IMG/VR virus record: IMGVR_UViG_3300037307_000307
Reading direction: 5' to 3' (one strand)
Length of the DNA stretch: 40,375 nt
Origin: a virus
Lineage: Duplodnaviria > Heunggongvirae > Uroviricota > Caudoviricetes
Made by a program: the position numbers and the translations under genes. The notes under the pieces were generated by a model. The model ran no database searches and was not told where the DNA came from. It saw nothing but the letters and a program-made list of their open reading frames with translations. Position 1 is the first letter of the stretch, and each line of letters starts with the position of its first letter. Shown here piece after piece: positions 2,443 through 34,480 of the stretch.

Positions 2443-2463
2443 ACTCATATTATGCTTCTCCTG

Positions 2464-2478
2464 TTTTTAAACATGGTT
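2464..2478 (-). promoter_or_regulatory. Left-arm (structural-gene) promoter AACCATSTTTAWAAA; other copies at 14111-14125, 16201-16215, 17116-17130, 17551-17565 (minus) and 20622-20636 (plus)
   Basis: Six copies, each upstream of a gene; looks like an archaeal BRE+TATA. The TATA start is 29 nt from an ATG at four copies (2442, 14089, 17094, 20658). Confidence 0.8.
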
Positions 2479-2488
2479 TCCATTATTA

Positions 2489-7308: not shown

Positions 7309-7653
7309 TTATATTCCACTCTCCGTTGTTATTCTTCCTAATATTACTCTAGATACGCCAGCAATTAATACTGCCATAATTATATATGGAAGATATAAGT
7401 CAATTGATATGCAAGCAAGAGTGTTTGATTTCAAACTCGCATTATAACTATAAACACTGTTAGGGTCTCCGTAATAAGAATAACCTCTACAGTTAAGATA
7501 GTCTGATTGTTGTGCCATATTTAACAAAGTTGTTAATTGTGGTATAAGAGCTACCATAACTGCAATAGTCATTAATAAGAACAATAAATTTATTATCATA
7601 ACTTGTCCTTTTCTATTCATTGACTTTTTAGTGGATATTTTCCTTAAAACCAT
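7309..7653 (-). CDS. Minor capsid/pilin-like two-helix protein with class III signal peptide
   Basis: Basic leader ending RKG|Q, then a hydrophobic helix with Pro, a polar loop (two Cys, NAS sequon) and a second hydrophobic helix with Pro. GGAGG lies upstream of ATG 7653. Confidence 0.65.
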   Translation of the reverse strand: MVLRKISTKKSMNRKGQVMIINLLFLLMTIAVMVALIPQLTTLLNMAQQSDYLNCRGYSYYGDPNSVYSYNASLKSNTLACISIDLYLPYIIMAVLIAGVSRVILGRITTESGI

Positions 7654-10600
7654 TTCTGTCTACCTCCTTTTTGATTCTTTGAAAATAAATTACCTTTTAC
7701 TTTAGGATTTCTTGTTCTTGCAGCAGCCGCTCTAACTCCTCTCAATGATATTTCTTTCTTCTCTCCAGAAGTAATTATTCTAGCTCTTTCTTTTTGAACA
7801 AATGTTAATGCTTGCGGAGTCTTTGTTTTAGGAGCTCTGAAATAACTCAATGATTTTCCAGAAGGTCCTGCCAAACCTAATGTTCCAACTCTTCCTTTCT
7901 TTTGAACTAATCTAAATGTTGCGGCAGCTCCTCCCAATGTTCTTTTTATACCAAATTGAGTTGCTTCTTCTTTACTTAATAAGAATGGACTTTCAACTCT
8001 AAATTTCTTTCTTCTTCTAATTTCAACTACATATCCTACTTCTTCTTTAGGTCTTTTCTTTTCTTCTGGTCTTTTTCTAGCTTGAGCAAAATCAATTATA
8101 GGTGGAACTATTCTTGGACTAGGTGAAGGGCTAGGGCTAGGCGAAGGAGATGGAGATGGCGAAGGACTTGGACTAGGTGAAGGGCTAGGGCTAGGACTTA
8201 CACTAGGCGATGGACTTACAGAAGGTGAAGGTGAAACACTAGGCGAAGGACTTGGACTAGGTGAAGGAGATGGTGAAGGAGATACACTTGGACTTACGGA
8301 AGGACTTACTGAAGGTGAAACACTAGGACTTGCACTAACACTTGGACTTACACTCATTGAAGCTGAAATTGAAGCGCTAACACTTGGAGAAGTACTTATT
8401 CTAGGTGAAGGTGAAACAGCTCCACTAGGTAAGAATGCTTTTATTGCAGCAGAAGTAACTCCAGAAGGACTTTGCATATATCCTTTCAAAGTTTGTTCTT
8501 CCATAACTTTCTTTGGTAAGAATGTTGTTAGAGTTGTTGTACTCACTCCAGGATAACTAACTATCGCAGGAGAAGTAGTTATCTTAGAAGGAACAAATGT
8601 AGTAAATGCTTGTGAAGTAGTTAATCCAGATATTCCTTTTGGTGCAAATGCTTCAAATGCTGCAAAAGCTTGAGCTCCTTTTATTGCACCAGGTAATGCA
8701 CTAACTGTTACTGGAGCAGTCTTTGCTGCTATTACAGTTGGAACTGCAGAAAGTAATTGTTCAGTTGTAACTTGTGGAAACATTTTAGGTAATGTTGTTT
8801 CTAATCTTGCTAAAGATGCTTTCATCGAAGCTGCTCTAAATGGACTAATGGAATATTGAGATAAAGTTTTTTCTATCGCAAAGAAATCAACTACATCTTT
8901 TGCCACTCTATAATCTTTTGGTCCAATTGAAAGAGTTGTACCTGGAGTTGTTGGAGCTCTTAATTGAATTATAGAACCAGCCTTTTCCAATCCTCCTTGA
9001 CTAAGTTGTTCTATCAATATTCCTTTCTCAGATGTTGCTCCAGGATAAGTGAATTTAGTTTGATATGGAATCTTTGGTCCTAATCCAAATATAGTCGAAG
9101 GAACTTCTTCTGGAGTGTCTATTCCGTGAGCGTCTAAGAAGTTATCCCATTCTTTACCATATTTACCTTGAATCAAACCAGTATCTTTTTGCCATTTAAC
9201 TGCAAGACCGTCTTTACCTTGTGCTGCTTTAAGTGCTTTATAAAGTTCTTCTACTTTTGGAATAGCTTCTTGCTTAGGGAATCTTACGTCATAATCTCCA
9301 GCTGGTTTTCTTCCGGGACCAAATTTACCTCCAGGTAATTGTGCTTGATAAGCAGATGAACCAGCTAAGTAATTAGCTCGAAGAGATGGAGACTCTCTGA
9401 ATTGTTTTTGTAACCATTCAACAAATACTTTTTGCTGTGCTTTATTCATATACTTGAAAGCTTCGGTTTGTTCTAATTGTAGTTTACCTGGTTTAACATC
9501 TATACCATATCCTTTAGTTGCAAGATTAATAATATCTTTTACTCCAGCTCCAAACACAGGTCCTAATTGTTGTTCTATTGCTTTTCTAGCAAATGCTGTT
9601 TGTATTGCAGTGGCTGGAGTGAATCCTGTTGCTTGTGGAAGAATGGATTGTACATCTGGAAATAATATATCTTTCTTAAATCCAAATCCCCATTTGTATT
9701 TACCTTGTGATATTAATAAGTCAGTCATGCTCGCTGCTTTTGTTTCAGGAGTGAATGCTTTAAATGCAGCAGGAGAAACTTTCAAACCAATATCTGTTCT
9801 AAACCAACTTGGAGCATAAGCAACTGTTTCTTTTCCAGGTAAGAATATCTGAGCTTGTTCACTCTTCCAACTAACTCCTCTCGGTACGAAAGCTTCATAT
9901 GCAGCCCTTGAATAAGTTGTCGGAGTCTGTTGTGCTTGAATATATTTTTGACCAGTGTAAGCACCAGTGGTTCCAAAGAATGTTGCTTTAGATGGTATAA
10001 ATGCTGTTGCTGTAGTTCCAGTTGCTCCAGGTATTGATGCTCCAAATGCCCATGTAGCAGTTGTAGCTCCATTTTGTAATGTTAAAGTTCTACCAAATAC
10101 TGGATATGCTTTAGTTCCCCATTGTGCATATAGTCCTTGGAATGTTGCTTTATCTGCTGGAGTTAAAACCATTTCTCCATATGTTGGAGAACCTATCTTA
10201 GTATCCATCTTTAATGTTTGTGCTCTAGCTTCTCCAATCTTTACAGGGAATGTTCCTTTATATAGAGAAACTCCAGTAGCAACTCCTACTGTGAATATTC
10301 CTCCAGCTTTCTCAACTTTAGTAGCACCAGGTTTAGCTATTTGGAATCCTCCATAAGCTGTGGTAACAGAAGATGGAACAAACTTAAATAATCCTCCAGC
10401 TGTACCTATAGCTAATGCTTTTTCTGGAGATGTTGGTAATATTGATGAAACAAACTTAGTTCCAAATATTCCACCAGCTTCAGCCCAAGTCATAAGTTCA
10501 TCTGATTTATTAGCATAATCTTTTGCAAGCTTTTTATATTCATCACTTGATACAAATTCTTTTTGAACATCCTTCACATATTGACTATTATTGAATTCTG

Positions 10601-14089: not shown

Positions 14090-14130
14090 ACAGATTACTA
14101 GTAAATGCACTTTTTAAAGATGGTTTACAA

Positions 14131-15258: not shown

Positions 15259-15807
15259 TTATTCTACTGGTGCCTCTGGTTGTCCACCAAATATATTGAA
15301 TCTTTTTTTCTTAAATGGTTGTTGACCGAACTGTCCACCCTGTCCGCCTTGTCCAAATCCTTGGCCACTGAATCTTTGAGTTTGTTTCTTTTGAGATACG
15401 AATAACTCTGTAAACCATCCTTTTTTAGATGCAGATGTCTTTAAAGTTATTTCCGAAACATCGTTGAAGAAAGATGCAAATCTATTATGATGAACTGTTG
15501 CTCCACACAGAGCTAAGAATTGTGCATTACGTACATTCATAAAAGGTTGTGGTCCTAATTCATATTTATCTAGATTACCAACTTTAGAATTATCTTTTGA
15601 CTTTAATACTTTATGGAATAATGTGTAAAGTCCTTCAGAACGTTTTTGTTGTGGAACGTCAGCCCATTCTACATTTTCAGATTCATCTTGATGTTCTTCC
15701 ATGCGGTCTTGATTTTCCGCCATGTCTTGTTCATCTAAGTATTCCTCTTCAGATGGCTCTGATTCTTGTTCAATTGCTTCTATCGGTTGCGTTTCTTCCT
15801 CTTGCAT
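15259..15807 (-). CDS. Protein with acidic N-terminus and G/Q/F-rich C-terminus
   Basis: 182-aa ORF heading a tightly packed run of genes. Confidence 0.75.
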   Translation of the reverse strand: MQEEETQPIEAIEQESEPSEEEYLDEQDMAENQDRMEEHQDESENVEWADVPQQKRSEGLYTLFHKVLKSKDNSKVGNLDKYELGPQPFMNVRNAQFLALCGATVHHNRFASFFNDVSEITLKTSASKKGWFTELFVSQKKQTQRFSGQGFGQGGQGGQFGQQPFKKKRFNIFGGQPEAPVE

Positions 15808-15917: not shown

Positions 15918-16148
15918 TTAAACTATTCCTGCTTGTCTCAAGCTAGAATAGGTTACTGCGATACCTATGCCAAGTATTCCAAGTGCGAAGAATCCAGGTA
16001 CCATCAAAAGTACTGAAGCTCCCCATGAACTTGAATTTGCAAGGTCTCCGCCAGTTGCAGCTACAAGGTTAACTTGCTGTGCAATTGGTCCGATTAAGGA
16101 TACACCAATAAGGATGGATACGAATCCACCAATAAGGTTTGCTATCAT
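15918..16148 (-). CDS. Spindle-shaped virus major capsid protein, copy A (SSV1 VP1/VP3-like)
   Basis: 76 aa; two hydrophobic helices each with a Pro, separated by a short polar loop with an NSS sequon. The pattern aligns by eye with mature fusellovirus VP1 as I recall it. Confidence 0.8.
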   Translation of the reverse strand: MIANLIGGFVSILIGVSLIGPIAQQVNLVAATGGDLANSSSWGASVLLMVPGFFALGILGIGIAVTYSSLRQAGIV

Positions 16149-16303
16149 TTTGGGTTATATTATGTTCATCCCTCCCATGACTGTAGGGAGGACTCTTTCC
16201 TTTATAAAGATGGTTCATACAAAATTCTACTAGTAAAATAATAAAACAAATATATTTTCACATATTGAAAATGTTTAAATATTCTAGTTTCAATACAATA
16301 CAG

Positions 16304-16798
16304 ATGACAATGAGATTGAATGTTGGAAGTGGTATAGATTATAGAGATGGTTGGATAAATTTAGATTATTACAATCCTGCTTATAAAATAGATGTGATGC
16401 ATGACTTGAATATTTTTCCATATCCTTTTGAAGATAATTCTTTTGATGAAATAGAATGTAAAATGGTTTTAGAACATTTATCAAACCCAATAAAAACATT
16501 ACAAGAATTTATTAGAATAAGTAAGAGTGGTTGTAAAATTCATATAGTAGTTCCTCATGCAACTACTTACGCAAACTTTACAGCATTTGACCATAGAGCA
16601 AATTTTACTGAATCTAGTTTCGATGAAAAGATATTATTAGAAGCCGGGCTGAGTGAAATGAAATTAACAGACTTTCATTTTATATATGTTAACAAATGGA
16701 AAAAATATATTCCATTTAAAGGATATCTTAAGATATTTTTAAATGGACTGTATGATGATTTGTCATTTACTTTCGAAGTTATTAAAAATAAAAAATAA
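16304..16798 (+). CDS. Class I SAM-dependent methyltransferase (type 11-like), inserted antisense between capsid genes
   Basis: RLNVGSG (motif I), WINLD, HDLNIFPYPFEDNSFDEI, VLEHL; tttaaata TATA about 30 nt before ATG 16304. Confidence 0.85.
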   Translation: MTMRLNVGSGIDYRDGWINLDYYNPAYKIDVMHDLNIFPYPFEDNSFDEIECKMVLEHLSNPIKTLQEFIRISKSGCKIHIVVPHATTYANFTAFDHRANFTESSFDEKILLEAGLSEMKLTDFHFIYVNKWKKYIPFKGYLKIFLNGLYDDLSFTFEVIKNKK

Positions 16799-16815
16799 AA
16801 ATAATAATTTAAATC

Positions 16816-16832
16816 CTGCTATTTTGTAGCAG
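16816..16832. terminator. Hairpin between convergent methyltransferase and capsid copy B
   Basis: ctgcta-ttttg-tagcag flanked by A/T runs. Confidence 0.5.
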
Positions 16833-16841
16833 TTATTTTTC

Positions 16842-17072
16842 TTAAACTATTCCTGCTTGTCTCAAGCTAGAATAAGTTACAGCAATTCCTATACCTAATA
16901 TTCCTAGAGCAAAGAATCCTGGTACCATTAAAAGTACAGAAGCTCCCCAACTAGAAGAATTAGCTAAATCTCCACCAGCTTGTGCGGTTTGATTAATTAT
17001 TCCAGCAACTGGTCCTATTAAAGAAACGCCAACTAATATAGATACGAATCCGCCTATTAAATTTGCAATCAT
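16842..17072 (-). CDS. Major capsid protein, copy B
   Basis: Near-identical to copy A; differs mainly in PVAGIINQTAQA, which adds an NQT sequon. Confidence 0.8.
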   Translation of the reverse strand: MIANLIGGFVSILVGVSLIGPVAGIINQTAQAGGDLANSSSWGASVLLMVPGFFALGILGIGIAVTYSSLRQAGIV

Positions 17073-17263
17073 TTTAAATTTTCAATCCTCCCATTATATA
17101 TATAAAAGAATTCTCTTTTTAAACATGGTTCGTAGTAATTTCTACTAGTAAAATAAATTAAATAAAAAAATAAGGGACAGGCGTAAACAAGTTTTGCTCG
17201 GTATTTAACTTCACAGCAACTCGCCTCATTTACCGCCCCGTGCGGTTAGCTAAGAATTTCTTC

Positions 17264-17494
17264 TTAAACTATTCCAGCTTGTCTAAGACTTGAATAAGTT
17301 ACAGCAATTCCTATACCTAGTATACCTAGTGCGAAGAATCCTGGAACCATCAATAAGACAGATGCTCCCCAAGTAGAAGAGTTGTAAACAGCTCCTCCTG
17401 CAGCAGCGACAAGGTTAACTTGTGATGCTATTGGTCCGATTAAGGAAACACCTATTAATATTGAGACAAAGCCTCCTATTAAATTTGCTATCAT
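17264..17494 (-). CDS. Major capsid protein, copy C
   Basis: Near-identical to copy A; loop reads ASQVNLVAAAGGAVYNSST. Confidence 0.8.
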   Translation of the reverse strand: MIANLIGGFVSILIGVSLIGPIASQVNLVAAAGGAVYNSSTWGASVLLMVPGFFALGILGIGIAVTYSSLRQAGIV

Positions 17495-17727
17495 GGTTGA
17501 TTAATATATTGTATTTCAGCCCTCCTATGATATCGGAGAGGTATCTATTCTTTTTAAACATGGTTCGTAGTGATTTCTACTAGTAAAATATAGTTATTCA
17601 AATATAACTGAGAAAATATCTTGCATTGTTTCAAACGGACTCATTCCATATAGAAAGTAATTATGAAGTATCATAAAATGAACTACTCCTGGTATTGCCA
17701 ATATAGCAAAGGGAATAAAATTTATTT

Positions 17728-18687
17728 TCAAACTTTCTCTCCCGAGAATGCGCGTATTCCAAATCTAACTTGTTTTTCTTCTATAGATACATCTGGCAAT
17801 TTACAAAGCATTTCAGATATCGTTCTAGCATCATAACCTTCCTTCCACATAGTATACAATAGTGCATCTCTTTGACGTTTCCATTTCCTTTCTATATTCT
17901 TAACTTCCTTTTGTTTGATAGCTTCCTGTTTTGCTTTCTCATACATATCCTTATCAAGAGGAAGGAATGGGCTGAACCTTCCTGTGAATGATGGACGAGC
18001 TCCAGAATATTTTGAGGCAGTTCCGGATTTCTTTTTACCATTAATGTATAAATTTTCTTTTTGACCTTCATTATAGAAATTAAAAAATCCTCTCTCCATT
18101 CTTTTATTTGTAAAAACATCTACAAGAAATATAGAACGGGAGATTGCATAATCCTCATGTAACTTAAAAAAATTTGGGAGTACGATAAGAATCACGTGGC
18201 CGTATTGACCGCACTCTTGGAAGAAGTCTTGCATTGCTTTATTAATAGCGGTCATGGCGGCCGATGAGTCTAGACCAGCTCTACCTTCATCATAAACAAT
18301 AACTTGATTTCTTCCATACTTATTGTAAAGTTCTCTTGCCTTTGTTTGTAAATCATCTGGAGTGAATACGACATTATCTTCTACATTAAATCTAACAGGA
18401 GTTATGGGTTTGCTAGCTACAAACCATTTACCAGTAGATTCTTCTTTGGCCATGGAACCACCTGCAATTAACCAAGCTAGAAAATAAGCTACCTGTTGTG
18501 CAAGTGTTGATTTTCCGACACGAACCTTTCCATGGCCAGAGAAGATTCCTACTACATCGTAAGAATGTTTTAAATAATCTGGAATGCCCATTAGATTGAT
18601 TGCTAGATATTCATCCATGTAATAACCAATTCTTTTCTTATTGAATTTAGGGTCGACCCAAACGTGGTCGGTAACTTGCATGCTCAT
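17728..18687 (-). CDS. FtsK/HerA-superfamily P-loop ATPase (morphogenesis/genome-packaging type)
   Basis: Walker A GKVRVGKS, Walker B VIVYDE, downstream ILIVLPNFFKL strand; sits directly upstream of the capsid genes. Confidence 0.8.
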   Translation of the reverse strand: MSMQVTDHVWVDPKFNKKRIGYYMDEYLAINLMGIPDYLKHSYDVVGIFSGHGKVRVGKSTLAQQVAYFLAWLIAGGSMAKEESTGKWFVASKPITPVRFNVEDNVVFTPDDLQTKARELYNKYGRNQVIVYDEGRAGLDSSAAMTAINKAMQDFFQECGQYGHVILIVLPNFFKLHEDYAISRSIFLVDVFTNKRMERGFFNFYNEGQKENLYINGKKKSGTASKYSGARPSFTGRFSPFLPLDKDMYEKAKQEAIKQKEVKNIERKWKRQRDALLYTMWKEGYDARTISEMLCKLPDVSIEEKQVRFGIRAFSGEKV

Positions 18688-20359: not shown

Positions 20360-20657
20360 GATTACATAGGTACCTCTTCATTGGGAGAGAGAGTTGATTC
20401 TGATATATAAATGTTTGCCATCTTTTCAGTATAGGGAATTGGAATATAATGTTTTCAAAACATTTTCTATAAAAATTTTTTATGTAAAATTTTTGTTTTT
20501 TAAAAAGTTTTATCTCCCGCAACTCGCGCGCTTCCCTCTCTGTTTTACTGTGCATTGTTCGTGCCGCCGGCCCACGGCATAAAAAGGGTCAGAAAATGCA
20601 ATGGTTTGCCAAGGGATTTGCAACCATCTTTATAAAGGCAGATGATTATAATAGGTC

Positions 20658-21369: not shown

Positions 21370-22239
21370 ATGGAAAAAAATTTACGCATAAAAAACCCTG
21401 AAAATTCTTCAAAACACCAATCTTTAACGAAGGTTTCTGAAAATGATAAAAACCATCAACATGAATATAAGCGTGAGGGCCCCTACATTGTATGTGAGTG
21501 TGGGAGAAAAACATTGTATCTTGAGGGTTCCCCTACAGAGGGTGTGAGAGTAGGAGTGAGGGCTAACGGCAGGAAATACAGCGTAAGAGATGATAGAAGC
21601 CGGTACTTTAAGCCCCAGGAGTGGACCGCATTCATAAATAAGATAAAACCGGATAAAAGACTTGTTTTTAATATGTGCTTTAATACAGGTGGTCGTATTG
21701 AGGAAGTTATGAATATCAGGGTTGATGATGTAACAATTGAATCAAACAACATAAGACTTAGAATCACTAAAAAGAAAGCAGCTAAAGGCGAGAGAGTTGG
21801 TAAGAGAAGGGAATTTAAGGTTAGCACTAGATTTATCAAAGAAATAAGAGACTACATAAGAGATAATAGACTGGGACCTACTGATTACCTATTTGTACCC
21901 ACAAACGAATATAGTGTATTAAATACAGAACAAGAAAGAAAGGCATATATGAAAAAAAAGATTATAAGCGTTTTTCAAATGTTTAAGCGTGGAGTTAAAG
22001 CGGCCGGAATACCGGACTGGTATAACTTCTCATTACACAATATCCGTAAAACCCATGGTATGTACTTGAAGTCAGTCAAGCCGTTTGCTAGGGGTTTAGA
22101 TATGGAAGAAATATGTATGAGGTTAGGGCATGATGTAAATACCTATCTTAAGCACTACGGGTCACCCAGTATATTCACCGAAAAAGAGATAAATCAGATA
22201 ATGTATATGTTAGGGGACATATATGGTTTACAGGCATAA
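21370..22239 (+). CDS. Tyrosine recombinase (XerA/integrase-like catalytic domain) with a small N-terminal Zn-ribbon-like segment
   Basis: Catalytic set visible: TGGR, HNIR (HxxR), LGH, YLKHY. N-terminal H-x-H...CECG; no obvious core-binding domain. Confidence 0.9.
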   Translation: MEKNLRIKNPENSSKHQSLTKVSENDKNHQHEYKREGPYIVCECGRKTLYLEGSPTEGVRVGVRANGRKYSVRDDRSRYFKPQEWTAFINKIKPDKRLVFNMCFNTGGRIEEVMNIRVDDVTIESNNIRLRITKKKAAKGERVGKRREFKVSTRFIKEIRDYIRDNRLGPTDYLFVPTNEYSVLNTEQERKAYMKKKIISVFQMFKRGVKAAGIPDWYNFSLHNIRKTHGMYLKSVKPFARGLDMEEICMRLGHDVNTYLKHYGSPSIFTEKEINQIMYMLGDIYGLQA

Positions 22240-22819: not shown

Positions 22820-23739
22820 ACAACAATATATTTATAAACTATAATTGTTTAAATATATTGAAATGTTTTTTAAAATTTTTCATTAGAAAAAAAAAACAAA
22901 TTGCTTAAAGGTATTAAGCAATTACAACAGGAGAAAAAAAAATTTATGGAACAAAAAAACGACATAGACACAATAAACCTTAAAGAGTTAAAATTGAAAA
23001 ATGATTTAAACACAATTAAGGTTTTAAGTGATGATGTTAAAAATTTTGTTGTTGAATTAGAAAAAACACAAAAAAATAATTGTGTTGTTCTAAATCAAGA
23101 AAAAACCGAATTTTTGCTTAAAGGATATTTAGGCAAAAAAGATAAAAATGGTTTTAACAACAGGTTAAAATATGCTTATGCTCGTGTTTTGTGTTGTTGT
23201 TTAGGTTATGCAAAAAAACCAACAGGCAAAACAAAAACCTTAATAGAAGATATTAAGAGAGTATCGTTTGATAGTAAAAAAATGGAAATCGGTTTTAACT
23301 TTAAAGATAAAAACAATTTTATCAAATAAGTTTAACAACAAAATTTTAAACACTATAATTTTATTTTTTATTTATGGGTTTATAGCAAAACGCTATAAAC
23401 CCTTTTTTTTGTCTAATTTTATTTATTCTGCTCCTGTCCCTTCTGCTCTCCTCCCCTCTCTCCTCTCGTATCTCGCCATTCGCCACTCGCCGATAGGTGA
23501 GCAGGTTTGCGATTTCTTGAAATCGGTTTCTGTAGTTCTTATTCCATTAAATCTTTAATCCCCTCCCATCTCCTCCCCTCCCCTCCAATCGCCTGTTAGC
23601 AACCTCGCCGATAGGTGAGCACTCTAGTAAACTCTTCGCCACTCGCCACTCGCCACTTCCTCCTGGAGAATCTGGTGGCCTCTTATAACATCTGAAACCT
23701 CTAAACAACAATATATTTATAAACTATAATTGTTTAAAT
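22820..23739 (+). repeat. Perfect 35-bp direct repeat pair (22820-22854 and 23705-23739) containing a TTTATAAA box
   Basis: acaacaatatatttataaactataattgtttaaat occurs twice. Confidence 0.9.
22946..23329 (+). CDS. Hypothetical K/N-rich protein inside the control region
   Basis: ORF downstream of the first 35-bp repeat; unusually A/T-rich codons. Confidence 0.5.
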   Translation: MEQKNDIDTINLKELKLKNDLNTIKVLSDDVKNFVVELEKTQKNNCVVLNQEKTEFLLKGYLGKKDKNGFNNRLKYAYARVLCCCLGYAKKPTGKTKTLIEDIKRVSFDSKKMEIGFNFKDKNNFIK

Positions 23740-24668: not shown

Positions 24669-24851
24669 ACTAATTGTTATTATGTCAAATTTTTTAAGAT
24701 GATGGATGCGATTGAACATACTTGCGAAGAGTGTGGAACAGAATTCTTATGCGTAGATGAAGCGAACGATGATTATAGAAATAGATGTTCGACTTGTTAC
24801 AAAAAAATGATACAGGAAGATTACGATGAGGATTATGGTTATTCAGATTAG
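24654..24851 (+). CDS. Small Zn-finger protein
   Basis: CEECG...CSTC plus an acidic tail. Confidence 0.6.
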   Translation: MATGETNCYYVKFFKMMDAIEHTCEECGTEFLCVDEANDDYRNRCSTCYKKMIQEDYDEDYGYSD

Positions 24852-24886
24852 AGTTTTTTAAATGCTGTTGTAATAATATGGTAAAG
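24846..24886 (+). promoter_or_regulatory. Right-arm promoter-like motif GATWAGAGTTTWTTAAA-N-TGTTG-TAWATTATGGTAAA (copies at 24846, 26359, 27702, 30256, 31623, 36933)
   Basis: Six copies at gene junctions with fixed 32-33 nt spacing from the first G to the AT(G/A)G element; contains a TATA-like box. Confidence 0.75.
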
Positions 24887-25072
24887 CAAAATTTAATTCA
24901 GATTCAGATGTGCCAGATTTGTGGTAGGCGTGAGGCAGAACACAAAAGGTTAATGGATGAAAATGAGTATTGGAATATTTGTGATTATTGTAACGAGGTT
25001 ACAGAGGAAAGTTATTGGGAACAATATTGGGATGCTAAAGCTGAGGAGGGTTATTACGATGAAGAATACTAA
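24878..25072 (+). CDS. Small Zn-finger protein
   Basis: CQICG...CDYC plus an acidic tail; start may be the Met at 24908. Confidence 0.6.
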   Translation: MVKQNLIQIQMCQICGRREAEHKRLMDENEYWNICDYCNEVTEESYWEQYWDAKAEEGYYDEEY

Positions 25073-26344: not shown

Positions 26345-26535
26345 AGAAGGTTTTTTTAGATTAGAGTTTTTTAAAATCTGTTGTAATATTATGGTAAAAA
26401 AATTAAAGACATTCGATTTGGATAAGGTTCAAGAAAAATATTTAATTGAAGATACAGAAAATCTAATTAAAGATTTAACACTTAAAGAATTGAATATGGT
26501 TTATGCGATTATTGAAAGGAGGTGGCGAACGGCGA

Positions 26536-27438: not shown

Positions 27439-27707
27439 ACGATAATGATAATTCAGAAATAAGAGCTTTCGATAGTGGTTATAAAGAGGGACAGAAAGAT
27501 ACAGAAGAAAAATTTAAAGAAGATTATTCTCAAAAAATTAATGATTACGATGTTAGAACAATTAAAGCGATGATTAAAACATTAAGAAATAGATTGTCAG
27601 ATTATAAAAATAAAATTCAAAGAATTGAAAACAAAATAGATATAATAAATTCTAAATTAGATGAATTAAAAATACAAGAATCAAACTCAGAGGAGGTAAC
27701 GGATTAG
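27435..27707 (+). CDS. Coiled-coil protein
   Basis: Heptad-patterned charged C-terminal half. Confidence 0.6.
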   Translation: MNDNDNSEIRAFDSGYKEGQKDTEEKFKEDYSQKINDYDVRTIKAMIKTLRNRLSDYKNKIQRIENKIDIINSKLDELKIQESNSEEVTD

Positions 27708-27733
27708 AGTTTCTTTAATCCTATTATTATGTT

Positions 27734-28066
27734 ATGGTTAAACCTACTGAGATTATTAAGGATGGATATTTTAATGCGTATGCCGACACTAATAGATTAT
27801 TTGCTAAATACAAGAATCAAGATTGTGTTGTTGCTTATAGGAAATGTCTTATGGGAGTTGTTATGGTAATTAAGGGAGCTAGAGATTTTATCGGATTGGT
27901 ATTCATTAACGATAATGTTACTAAATGGAGCAATACTGAACTTCATAGAAAGGATTTATCACAGATAATGAAGTTATTCAATATAGAAGATAAAAACGAG
28001 ATGGTAATTGTTAATCAAGATGAGTATGGATTATTTGAAAGGAAGGTTTTATACAATTCGATTTAA
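27734..28066 (+). CDS. Hypothetical protein
   Basis: 110-aa ORF behind the promoter motif. Confidence 0.7.
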   Translation: MVKPTEIIKDGYFNAYADTNRLFAKYKNQDCVVAYRKCLMGVVMVIKGARDFIGLVFINDNVTKWSNTELHRKDLSQIMKLFNIEDKNEMVIVNQDEYGLFERKVLYNSI

Positions 28067-30242: not shown

Positions 30243-30330
30243 TTCTACGAATCCGGATTAGAGTTTATTAAATTCTGTTGGTATATTATGGTAAAACAAA
30301 ATATAAAAATGAAAGGAGGTAGCAATTAAG

Positions 30331-31564: not shown

Positions 31565-31669
31565 TTCATATTCAGAAATGTTATTTTCTAAAAGAGGTGG
31601 CGACTGGCGAACGGCGACGCCAGATAAGAGTTTATTAAAATTCGTTGGTATATTATAGGTATAAATAAA

Positions 31670-33010
31670 ATGGAATTAACAACATTAGATAGATTGAGAA
31701 GAGCAAGAATACAGATTCAGAAAAGTAATCCTTTCTTTGCATATTTAGTTTTGCAATTAAAATTCAAAGAGGCTAGAGAGGGCGAGTTACCGGATTATGC
31801 AGGTATGGGAGTTGCTATAGATGGCACTCTTGTTTATAAAAAAGAGTTTGTTGATAAGATAACTGAACCGGAACTTATCGGAGTTCTCGTCCACGAGATA
31901 TTACACTTGTCCTTATTACATTTAACAAGAAGACAAAAAAGGGAACCTACTATATGGAATGTTGCTGCAGATATATGCGTTAATCAGATTGTAAAAACAA
32001 ATGGATATAGTCTTCCTCGAGGTGCTATTGTTTCAGATTATAATAATAATTGTGAATTTATGGGAGTTAAGATTAACAAGTGCGATAAGAAAACTGCTGA
32101 GCAAGTTTATGAGGAATTAGAACACTTAAAGAGTAAAATGAAAAAAAGATTTGTTCTTGGATATCCATCTATGAACGATAAAGAGGGTGGCGGAAATGAA
32201 GATGGCACTCCATTCGATATTCATATCGAGGGCAAAGATGAGGGAAACAAAAATCAAAACGGAAAAGACGAAAAAGATAATAATAATCAAAATAAAGGAA
32301 ATGGTTTCAATTCAAATTTAACAGAAGAAGAAAAAAGGGAGTGGGAAGAGTTTTGGAAAAGCAAAGCTAACGAGGCTTTGGTTACTGCGAAACTAAAAGG
32401 AAATGTTCCTGCTGGAATTGAAAGATTGGTTGGGCAATTATCAGAGGCAAAAATTGGGTGGAGGGAAATACTCCAAAGATATGTTCAAAGAGCTATTCCT
32501 TATGATTATACTTATTCTAATCCTAGTAAGAAATCGGTGGCTACGGGCTATTATATGCCTAATACAATAAAAGATTATATTGATGTGGTGGTTGCTGTTG
32601 ACACTTCTGGGAGTATTGGTCAGGAGGAACTTAAGGAGTTCTTATCGGAAATTGTGGGTATTGCGAAAGCATTTAGCACTAGAGTTAAAATGAGATTGCT
32701 CACTCACGATGTTAAGGTCTGGGATGATTTACTTATTCAAAATGGAAATATAGCTAAGATTAATGAATTGAAAGTTAAAGGAGGAGGTGGAACATCTCAT
32801 AAAGAAGTTTTAGATTATGTTAATGAAAAATACAAAACTACAAGATTGTTAATCTGTTTTACTGATGGTGATTCTGATTTAGATGAAATAGATGATGGTA
32901 AATATAGATTTGATAAGGTTTTTGTCATATCAGAAAACGGACACGATAATCAACTCAGAGATTTTAAAGCTCATATAATTAAATTAAGGGATTTCAAATA
33001 TGACAACTAA
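31670..33010 (+). CDS. HExxH metallopeptidase-like plus vWA domain protein (DUF2201-like), MoxR partner
   Basis: VHEILH, WNVAADI, acidic low-complexity linker, VDTSGS MIDAS, GGGGT and FTDG. Confidence 0.9.
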   Translation: MELTTLDRLRRARIQIQKSNPFFAYLVLQLKFKEAREGELPDYAGMGVAIDGTLVYKKEFVDKITEPELIGVLVHEILHLSLLHLTRRQKREPTIWNVAADICVNQIVKTNGYSLPRGAIVSDYNNNCEFMGVKINKCDKKTAEQVYEELEHLKSKMKKRFVLGYPSMNDKEGGGNEDGTPFDIHIEGKDEGNKNQNGKDEKDNNNQNKGNGFNSNLTEEEKREWEEFWKSKANEALVTAKLKGNVPAGIERLVGQLSEAKIGWREILQRYVQRAIPYDYTYSNPSKKSVATGYYMPNTIKDYIDVVVAVDTSGSIGQEELKEFLSEIVGIAKAFSTRVKMRLLTHDVKVWDDLLIQNGNIAKINELKVKGGGGTSHKEVLDYVNEKYKTTRLLICFTDGDSDLDEIDDGKYRFDKVFVISENGHDNQLRDFKAHIIKLRDFKYDN

Positions 33011-33616: not shown

Positions 33617-34480
33617 ATGAATACAAATGAAATTATAGATGCTTATAAAAAGAATATTTCTAAAATAGAGCATATAAATCAATTACTCAATAGAAATAAA
33701 AGTTTGTTCGATAAGATGCAAAGTCAAACAATAACAGATATTTCTAAACTATACTCGGTTGTTTTTAAGAATATAAATCCAGATAAAAAATATGTATGTG
33801 ATGTCGATAATGCAAAATTAGATGAATACTCTTATAACGATGACGATGATGAAAACGATAATATAGAGAAAAGAAAATTATTCTTAAACACAGAGGGTTT
33901 TTCTTTTTCAGGAGTTTTTAATCCTACAAGAAATGAAGATGTTGATACTTCTAAAACTATTTATATAACTTCATTTAGTCAAAAAGGTTTTTTAAAAATG
34001 CTTTTAAGGTTGTATTACAATAAAGATAAAATTATTTCATCTATAAATCGTGACTATAAAAAATCAATAGCTATAAGGTTTTTTGAAGCTTTAGAAAAAG
34101 CAGAGTGTCATAAAATATTAGATTATAATTTAGATTACGATTACTTTAAAATTATTCTTCCTAAAACTATCACTTTAGAATATTATAATAATTTGAAGAT
34201 GGAACCTTTAGAGATGAATTTTATTTTAACAAAAAATGCGAATACTTCGGTGACAATAAACAAGAGAAGAGGTTGGTCTAATGAGAATAATATTCAGTTA
34301 AATGATTTGGAAAGAGTGTCGCAAATATACGATGAGCTTGTAGATTTCTTAAACAAATATTATCAGCACTTAGATGTTCAGGATAAGAGTTTATCAAATT
34401 TCTACAATATATTAAAGGACTCTTTTGCTAAAGAGCTTGTTTTAAATTCATTAAAGGACGAGGAAACAAAAAATGAATAA
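33617..34480 (+). CDS. Hypothetical N/K/D-rich protein
   Basis: 287-aa ORF, tightly packed. Confidence 0.75.
   Translation: MNTNEIIDAYKKNISKIEHINQLLNRNKSLFDKMQSQTITDISKLYSVVFKNINPDKKYVCDVDNAKLDEYSYNDDDDENDNIEKRKLFLNTEGFSFSGVFNPTRNEDVDTSKTIYITSFSQKGFLKMLLRLYYNKDKIISSINRDYKKSIAIRFFEALEKAECHKILDYNLDYDYFKIILPKTITLEYYNNLKMEPLEMNFILTKNANTSVTINKRRGWSNENNIQLNDLERVSQIYDELVDFLNKYYQHLDVQDKSLSNFYNILKDSFAKELVLNSLKDEETKNE

Follow-up and report, generated by a model that had tools for sequence, protein, structure and literature searches.

Three paralogous genes for a probable VP1-like coat protein, nearly identical in their helices and divergent at the hairpin tip, in an uncultivated candidate spindle virus of archaea

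We analyzed a 40,375-nt stretch of viral DNA (IMG/VR record IMGVR_UViG_3300037307_000307; hereafter the window, whose numbering gives all coordinates) and found that three adjacent genes on its minus strand, copies A, B and C, are probably paralogous coat genes of a spindle-type (lemon-shaped) uncultivated archaeal virus. Each encodes a VP1-like hydrophobic alpha-hairpin of 76 residues, and the three products would co-assemble into a coat with mixed, glycosylated tips. The genes, called major capsid protein (MCP) copies here, are the following open reading frames (ORFs).

15918..16148, minus strand: MCP copy A, 76 aa; ORF with tip ...GGDLANSSS and sequon N38.
16842..17072, minus strand: MCP copy B, 76 aa; ORF with the most divergent tip, VAGIINQTAQAGG, sequon N38 and an extra sequon, N27-Q-T.
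17264..17494, minus strand: MCP copy C, 76 aa; ORF with tip ...GGAVYNSST and sequon N38.

All three copies are intact, and each is 231 nt long (76 codons and a stop). A first-pass annotation of this DNA, made from its letters alone, had described three 76-aa ORFs with an identical C-terminal 35 residues, and the ORF and codon listings agree: compared codon by codon, the proteins are without any difference across residues 42–76. Replacements among A, B and C fall at residues 14, 22, 24–26, 28, 29, 31, 32, 35–37 and 41, with I14V in copy B as the sole replacement outside residues 22–41. The same annotation had confined the variation to the loop; this stands insofar as I14V is the only change outside residues 22–41, but that segment exceeds the loop, comprising the end of helix 1, the turn (residues 30–34) and the start of helix 2 in an AlphaFold2 model. 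The N-L-I-G codons that it quoted from the three copies (aac ctt att ggt / aat tta ata ggc / aat tta ata gga) are correct to the letter, and so was its reading of the sequons, with N38-S-S in A, B and C and N27-Q-T in B alone.

Copies C and B are separated by 191 nt and copies B and A by 693 nt, the latter gap containing an antisense methyltransferase gene. The spacer DNA before each copy is unrelated among A, B and C, as expected from the separate spacers reported at first pass. When each of the window's 351 stop-to-stop frames was searched with a profile, no MCP-family gene beyond A, B and C was found. With three MCP homologues adjacent on one strand, the window holds a paralogous-MCP arrangement, for which at least two are needed.

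The assignment of these genes to the capsid, proposed in the first-pass annotation, is supported by homology and by fold; a conserved P-loop ATPase gene adjoins the copies. When copy A was searched with phmmer against the Protein Data Bank (PDB), the sole match was SSV19 VP1 (7xdi_A, E 0.046), and a 21-sequence family profile matched the same chain at E 1.9e-4 over residues 4–70, a span that takes in the loop and both helices. When 1.84 billion representatives were searched exhaustively with a profile, 396 clusters (at 50% identity) were obtained, one of which, P0139, links the family to VP1 (E 2.4e-18 with the family profile; 3.2e-5 for P0139 against 7xdi). Weak matches were also obtained to the PHROG 'virion structural protein' families 5402 and 11172 (E 5e-5 to 2e-4). 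The MCP had no family match in Pfam or NCBIfam, and no tblastn or blastn match in the phage/archaeal-virus collection.

The AlphaFold2 model, calculated from a diverse alignment (mean predicted local distance difference test score, pLDDT, 91.4), is a helix-turn-helix with helices at residues 2–29 and 41–72. Its best Foldseek match in the PDB is again 7xdi_A (TM-score 0.74/0.81, root-mean-square deviation 2.5 Å, 28% identity), at an E of only 0.13, a value to be expected because the fold is so small and helical. The SSV19 capsid has the hairpin loop of VP1 as its outer surface and the VP1 termini as its inner surface (PMC9351363). Since the SSV19 loop faces outward, residues 22–41 would be the outward-facing third of the hairpin, which is more than its turn. 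Of 187 distinct 76-aa family members, 181 have the sequon N38-x-S/T and only 10 the B-type N27 sequon; N-glycosylation at N38 on the exposed turn is predicted from these motifs.

A candidate fourth capsid paralogue, an ORF of 114 aa (7309–7653, minus strand), was rejected (hhalign probability 6.5%; hmmsearch E 0.025, to helix 1 alone). The product of this ORF combines two hydrophobic helices with a basic leader and with a loop in which both Cys and a sequon occur.

The three copies share 75–77% nucleotide identity. By the Nei–Gojobori method over the whole gene, the proportion of synonymous differences (pS) is 0.54–0.68 in the A/B/C pairs and the corrected synonymous divergence (dS) is 0.97–1.73, which is close to saturation given the A+T-rich codon usage. 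The first-pass annotation had described a nearly fixed protein with diverged synonymous sites and had suggested comparing dN/dS between the copies. This ratio (omega) is 0.018–0.034 over the 56 helix codons and 0.18–0.48 over codons 22–41, and dS is anything but low, as the description implied. Strong purifying selection keeps all three copies intact, and the tips, with omega below 1, are under purifying selection as well. Across the family, the two helices have column entropies of 0.26 and 0.31 bits, versus 1.09 at positions 22–41.

Two trivial origins of the array were rejected. Foreign origin of one copy has no support from the G+C content at third codon positions (GC3), which is 0.13–0.28 in the copies and lies inside the range of the other window genes (0.11–0.28). 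An assembly artefact or recent duplication is ruled out by the high pS, by the unique spacers and by the presence of the array on two independent contigs, L011 and L012, which belong to a set of 85 related loci that we fetched (L numbers).

A word-indexed search of the family gave 1317 clusters at 90% identity, nearly all of exactly 76 aa. The closest relative of copy A is L012_3 (88% nucleotide identity, dS 0.48), and copy C is closest to L011_1/L014_1 (86% nucleotide identity; dS to L011_1 0.63). Copies A and C are each nearer to these orthologues elsewhere than A, B and C are to one another. In a maximum-likelihood tree, calculated from an alignment of 228 nt and with few well-supported branches, a starred clade (96/90) unites A and B with the A-type genes found in L010–L013, and C groups with L011_1/L014_1 (support 92/86). 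An approximately unbiased (AU) test rejects A, B and C as one clade (p 0.0016), the tested group having been named after the first tree was seen.

Gene order is shared as well. L012 has the order of the window (ATPase, C-type gene, second paralogue, insert slot, A-type gene, acidic protein), and L011 has C-type gene, second paralogue and A-type gene, also as in the window. Because this order is shared with L012 and L011, the array was inherited and not recently assembled. From the combined trees, distances and synteny, the A-type and C-type genes were both present by the time of the common ancestor of this element and at least two other sequenced relatives. The copies are thus old, separately maintained paralogues, given their synonymous divergence, their orthologue groups with L011 and L012 and the AU result, in line with the first-pass view of old duplicates under strong purifying selection.

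The A and C tips each have their own motif around the sequon, D-L-A-N-S-S-S in the A type and x-V-Y-N-S-S-T in the C type, and each motif is conserved inside its own orthologue group. Copy B has a long terminal branch (0.25) and an omega of 0.14–0.16 against its nearest relatives, and its 90% cluster (P0024) has a single member. It occupies the slot that is taken by a 90-aa long-tip paralogue in L011 and L012.

On the coding strand, each copy is preceded by a module of about 76 nt with the form TTTTACTAGTAGAAAT..GAACCAT(G/C)TTTA(A/T)AAAG, 22–24 nt, CAT(G/A)GGAGG, 17–27 nt, ATG. The modules, whose cores resemble a transcription factor B recognition element (BRE) and TATA box, and a terminator-like hairpin recognized from its sequence lie at the following positions.

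16165..16240, minus strand: promoter/leader module of A; TACTAGTA palindrome at 16228-16235, BRE/TATA-like core at 16200-16216, CATGGGAGG about 22 nt downstream at 16170-16179.
17080..17155, minus strand: promoter/leader module of B; TACTAGTA at 17143-17150, core at 17115-17131.
17515..17590, minus strand: promoter/leader module of C; TACTAGTA at 17578-17585, core at 17550-17566.
16816..16832, both strands: terminator-like hairpin where B and the methyltransferase gene converge, between their stops.

The core RAACCATSTTTAWAAAG has 6 occurrences in the window versus 0.08 expected, three of which precede the MCP genes, and the TACTAGTA palindrome has 4 versus 0.83 expected. The module is also found before the MCP genes of L010–L012, L016 and L019, with a constant spacing to CATRGGAG. 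We infer that it is a BRE/TATA element plus initiator and acts as a promoter, because it fits the archaeal BRE/TATA consensus and its spacing is constant. If the three promoters are active, transcript 5′ ends would lie about 22–24 nt downstream of each TTTAAAAAG. As far as the letters can tell, the first-pass proposal of a promoter for each copy is therefore correct, the module being present before every one. The leaders from TATA to ATG are 42–55 nt long and differ among the copies, no proximal Shine-Dalgarno sequence was found ahead of the three MCP ATGs, and T-rich tracts lie downstream of the copies.

The duplicated unit evidently included the putative promoter. In the related loci, neighboring MCP genes are separated by 40 nt or less in 40 of 67 cases, a spacing suggestive of operons. 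The other 27 gaps, which are wider, cluster in the window's sub-clade, so the separate promoters would be a derived feature there.

Two possible RNA elements near the copies were dismissed. A leader hairpin that would sequester GGGAGG in A and C has its 5′ arm upstream of the predicted transcript start, and it is absent from B and from the relatives. A G+C-rich island of about 90 nt (17165-17262, minus strand), which lies between the stop of C and the B promoter and precedes a T-tract, has a structure z-score of -0.98, which is not significant, and an Rfam search of this C–B region gave a sole match that is at chance level and lies elsewhere, inside copy C.

The three other RAACCATSTTTAWAAAG cores are at 14110-14126 (minus strand), 2463-2479 (minus strand) and 20621-20637 (plus strand). 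At the 14110 core, TACTAGTA is just downstream of the TATA box, not upstream as at the MCP genes. An ATG follows the end of the 20621 core after about 20 nt, a distance suggestive of a leaderless mRNA. In the plus-strand arm, genes are preceded by another dispersed promoter-like family, GATTAGAGTTT(T/A)TTAAA..CTGTTG.TATATTATGG; it is distinct from the MCP module, suggesting two promoter classes in the window.

24838-24894, 26351-26407, 27694-27750, 30248-30304, 31615-31671 and 34382-34418, plus strand: second promoter-like family, a dispersed repeat.

A check on copy number in relatives, proposed at first pass, showed that several copies are usual, with two or more in 56 of the 85 related loci. 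Related loci carry two MCP copies in 49 cases, three in 6, four in 2 and one in 29, and these numbers are lower bounds, as most loci are short fragments and many of the 29 single-copy ones are truncated. Of 20 loci flanked on each side by 1.5 kb or more, 7 have a single copy, 12 have two and 1 has three. L012 carries four copies. The usual pair consists of a 76-aa short-tip form and an 82–100-aa long-tip form; exactly two Cys are present in 36 of the 39 long-tip forms, and one or two tip sequons in all of them. Lineage-specific tandem duplicates also occur (L012_2/L012_3 and L019_1/L019_2). On the 86.6-kb sequence G001 (IMGVR_UViG_3300031673_000011), two distant MCP-like ORFs (45445–45963 and 54170–54385) lie far from its tandem MCP pair; one of them is 188 aa long, with a loop of about 90 residues separating helix 1 from helix 2. 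Such giant-loop forms (170–190 aa) were common in the representative search.

We explain the array as follows. The three genes would be transcribed together from near-identical promoters. Because the lattice-forming helices are identical, the products would be interchangeable and co-assemble into one coat, and a mosaic coat is plausible on the same grounds. Its outer face would consist of hairpin tips with the N38 sequon, a mixture of the conserved A and C types and the fast-evolving B with its second sequon. Extra gene dosage would probably be a by-product and not the reason for keeping the copies. Several points weigh against this explanation. Similarity to VP1 rests on a short, hydrophobic and compositionally biased hairpin, for which the Foldseek E value is poor despite the high TM-score. 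The neighboring ATPase matches only weak Zot-type or generic P-loop proteins, and nothing specific to the morphogenesis ATPases of spindle viruses. The group put to the AU test was chosen after the fact, as said above. Co-expression, co-assembly and glycosylation are all deductions, the identity of the promoters does not point to differential use, and pure dosage would predict identical helices just as well.

The nature of the proteins and the cause of their identical helices could each be read otherwise. Strong hydrophobicity and the missing Pfam and NCBIfam matches would also suit small two-pass membrane proteins of a plasmid-like element, holin-like or acting in exclusion, in place of a coat. 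This is highly improbable, as SSV19 VP1 is the sole notable sequence match in the PDB and also the top fold match, PHROG virion-protein families match, synteny with the ATPase and giant adhesin-like ORFs is conserved, and the family is very large with a near-invariant length; a tip sequon is, moreover, found in the coat proteins of other spindle and rod viruses (PMC10866085). Concerted evolution, in which gene conversion and not purifying selection on old copies would keep the helices identical, does have precedents nearby. Helix-coding pS between same-genome paralogues ranges from 0.07 to 0.86, and in L002, L075, L078 and L082 the helix DNA is 96–98% identical (pS 0.07–0.09) with unrelated tips. 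In 19 of 38 cases, a long-tip gene has its nearest helix DNA within its own genome, in the short-tip gene; judged from these comparisons, gene conversion clearly homogenizes the helices in some relatives. The window itself has an identical 30-nt tract at the 3′ end of A and B (codon-shuffle p 0.004) and a 28-nt tract shared by B and C (p 0.02). However, helix pS in the window (0.52–0.68) is as high as among random family members (between-genome median 0.66), and orthologues are nearer than paralogues, so conversion explains short tracts at most. We therefore ruled it out as the cause of the identical window helices, except possibly in the 28–30-nt tracts, and give concerted evolution very little credence here.

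The first-pass annotation had offered two functions, gene dosage for a large virion or a mosaic capsid. Pure dosage, by which redundant copies are kept only to supply coat for a very large virion, is the weaker of the two, because the A and C tip motifs are conserved among orthologues (at dS of at least 0.5) and tip omega is below 1. Identical helices and near-identical promoter modules fit dosage, as do large contigs (109.7 kb; relatives up to 169.6 kb) and the extra tandem duplicates of single lineages. It is nonetheless rather unlikely: in related loci, the tip of the second paralogue is usually of another structure, copy number does not evidently rise or fall with contig size (4 on 53.7 kb, 2 on 86.6 kb), and, by geometry, subunits scale with surface and DNA with volume, so that larger virions should need fewer subunits per base pair. 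Alternatively, one copy or a changing subset could be expressed according to host or infection stage, as in phase or antigenic variation. Each copy does look like a transcription unit in its own right, having a separate leader and terminator-like sequence, the leaders are unequal in length, and B evolves faster than A and C. Yet the promoters of A, B and C hardly differ, even in the upstream TACTAGTA palindrome, the copies are without a flanking invertible segment or recombination site, and all three are under purifying selection; we regard such alternative use as improbable.

The co-assembled coat that we favor may be one instance of something broader, and it is possible, if tentative, that the coat is a modular surface-variation system. 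Invariant helices, maintained by selection here and by conversion in some relatives, would then carry interchangeable glycosylated tips and present a mixed, evolvable surface.

The MCP array is part of a minus-strand block with the order ATPase, C, B, antisense methyltransferase gene, A, acidic 182-aa protein, and then two giant adhesin-like ORFs of 2078 and 1331 aa downstream. Other genes in and near the block are listed here.

17728..18687, minus strand: P-loop ATPase, 319 aa, immediately upstream of the MCP genes; translation with Walker A and B motifs; candidate morphogenesis ATPase.
16304..16798, plus strand: antisense class-I S-adenosylmethionine (SAM) methyltransferase gene between B and A; Pfam Methyltransf_11 E 1.4e-6, phrog_6636 E 7e-13.
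15259..15807, minus strand: acidic 182-aa protein directly downstream of A; syntenic in L012.
21370-22239: tyrosine integrase gene.

The ATPase has 435 homologues, and its synteny is kept in L012. Matches to Zot are weak (17 of 41 family members, best E 0.004), and the fold matches are generic P-loop proteins (STIV B204, the Zot N-terminal domain and ATV ORF286). A role as the spindle-virus morphogenesis ATPase is no more than plausible. Neither the ATPase nor the 14–20 kb region had a tblastn or blastn match in the phage/archaeal-virus collection. Four ATPase genes of relatives (P0298, P0307, P0320 and P0343) encode 390–540 aa and contain intein/homing-endonuclease domains (PF14890, PF14528 and PF05204); by this domain content, the putative morphogenesis-type ATPase is an intein target in this virus group.

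The slot between B and A looks like an insertion hot spot when the loci are compared: in L012 (1681-3608) it holds an unrelated antisense N6_N4 DNA methylase gene and two ORFs, and in L011 it is empty. The acidic 182-aa protein had no family match in the domain and family libraries. The 2078-aa ORF contains an imperfect tandem repeat with an 18-nt period (8113-8418), implying a six-residue repeat region. A perfect direct repeat of 35 nt, ACAACAATATATTTATAAACTATAATTGTTTAAAT, lies just downstream of the integrase gene, with copies at 22820-22854 and 23705-23739, 885 nt apart.

Copies B (P0024) and C (P0010) are products of a 109,720-bp virus-like contig, and the window is thus part of a large element; contigs of relatives reach 169.6 kb. 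Related contigs that bear the MCP or the ATPase have been binned in metagenome-assembled genomes of Pacearchaeota, 'Mycoplasmatota' and Nitrososphaerales. A scan of ten of the related loci turned up no tRNA genes.

The three-copy arrangement extends the two-coat-gene arrangement already described in spindle-shaped viruses. Fuselloviruses have a major coat protein, VP1, and a minor one, VP3, which are paralogous hydrophobic alpha-hairpins, and both SSV1 proteins are present in virions. The SSV1 coat proteins are reportedly glycosylated. Deletion of SSV1 vp3 results in longer, thinner virions (PMC5748691). The window resembles Fuselloviridae (SSV1, SSV19) in the fold, in detectable homology, in side-by-side paralogues and in the outward loop. 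It differs in having three copies instead of two, proteins without an N-terminal propeptide or basic N-terminus, lattice helices that are identical among copies differing only at the exposed tip, and a promoter for each gene. The genome is also of about 110 kb, in contrast to 15–17 kb, and the setting is one of mesophilic sediment or water metagenomes.

Similar combinations are known from other archaeal hosts. In the portions of the preprints available to us, Wyrdviridae of Asgard archaea are described with one or two MCPs (bioRxiv 10.1101/2021.07.29.453957), and DNSV-1 to -3 of Nanohaloarchaeota with an AAA+ ATPase alongside a pair of MCP paralogues (bioRxiv 10.1101/2025.02.15.638363). The features that these portions list, an ATPase with tandem MCP paralogues, a tyrosine integrase and very large adhesin-like genes, have counterparts in the window, a putative one in the case of the ATPase. 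In this comparison of descriptions, the number of copies is two at most for DNSVs and Wyrdviridae, and the same portions of text make no mention of helix identity, tip classes or per-gene promoters. The Thaspiviridae virus NSV1 and the NYMAG-47 group, spindle viruses of ammonia-oxidizing archaea, have MCPs of 81 aa and 89 aa, respectively. Like the window's proteins, these are small and two-helical, with sequons on the hairpin turn, and they come from mesophilic aquatic habitats; unlike the window, a single MCP gene is described for them, in genomes of 27–38 kb (PMC8491892, PMC10866085).

How spindle capsids that are built from one tiny hairpin protein change their size, shape and surface is an open question. 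In the window, evolution has cleanly separated the lattice-building from the outward-facing parts of such a protein, the helices being identical and the tips differing and conserved by type, which amounts to a natural experiment on the role of the exposed, probably glycosylated tip. The very large MCP family to which the copies belong was missed by standard annotation, and with it as a hallmark gene these large archaeal viruses can be sought in metagenomes. If the coat is indeed a modular surface-variation system, its tips could broaden adsorption to host envelopes and glycans or evade surface-directed defences, with assembly unharmed.

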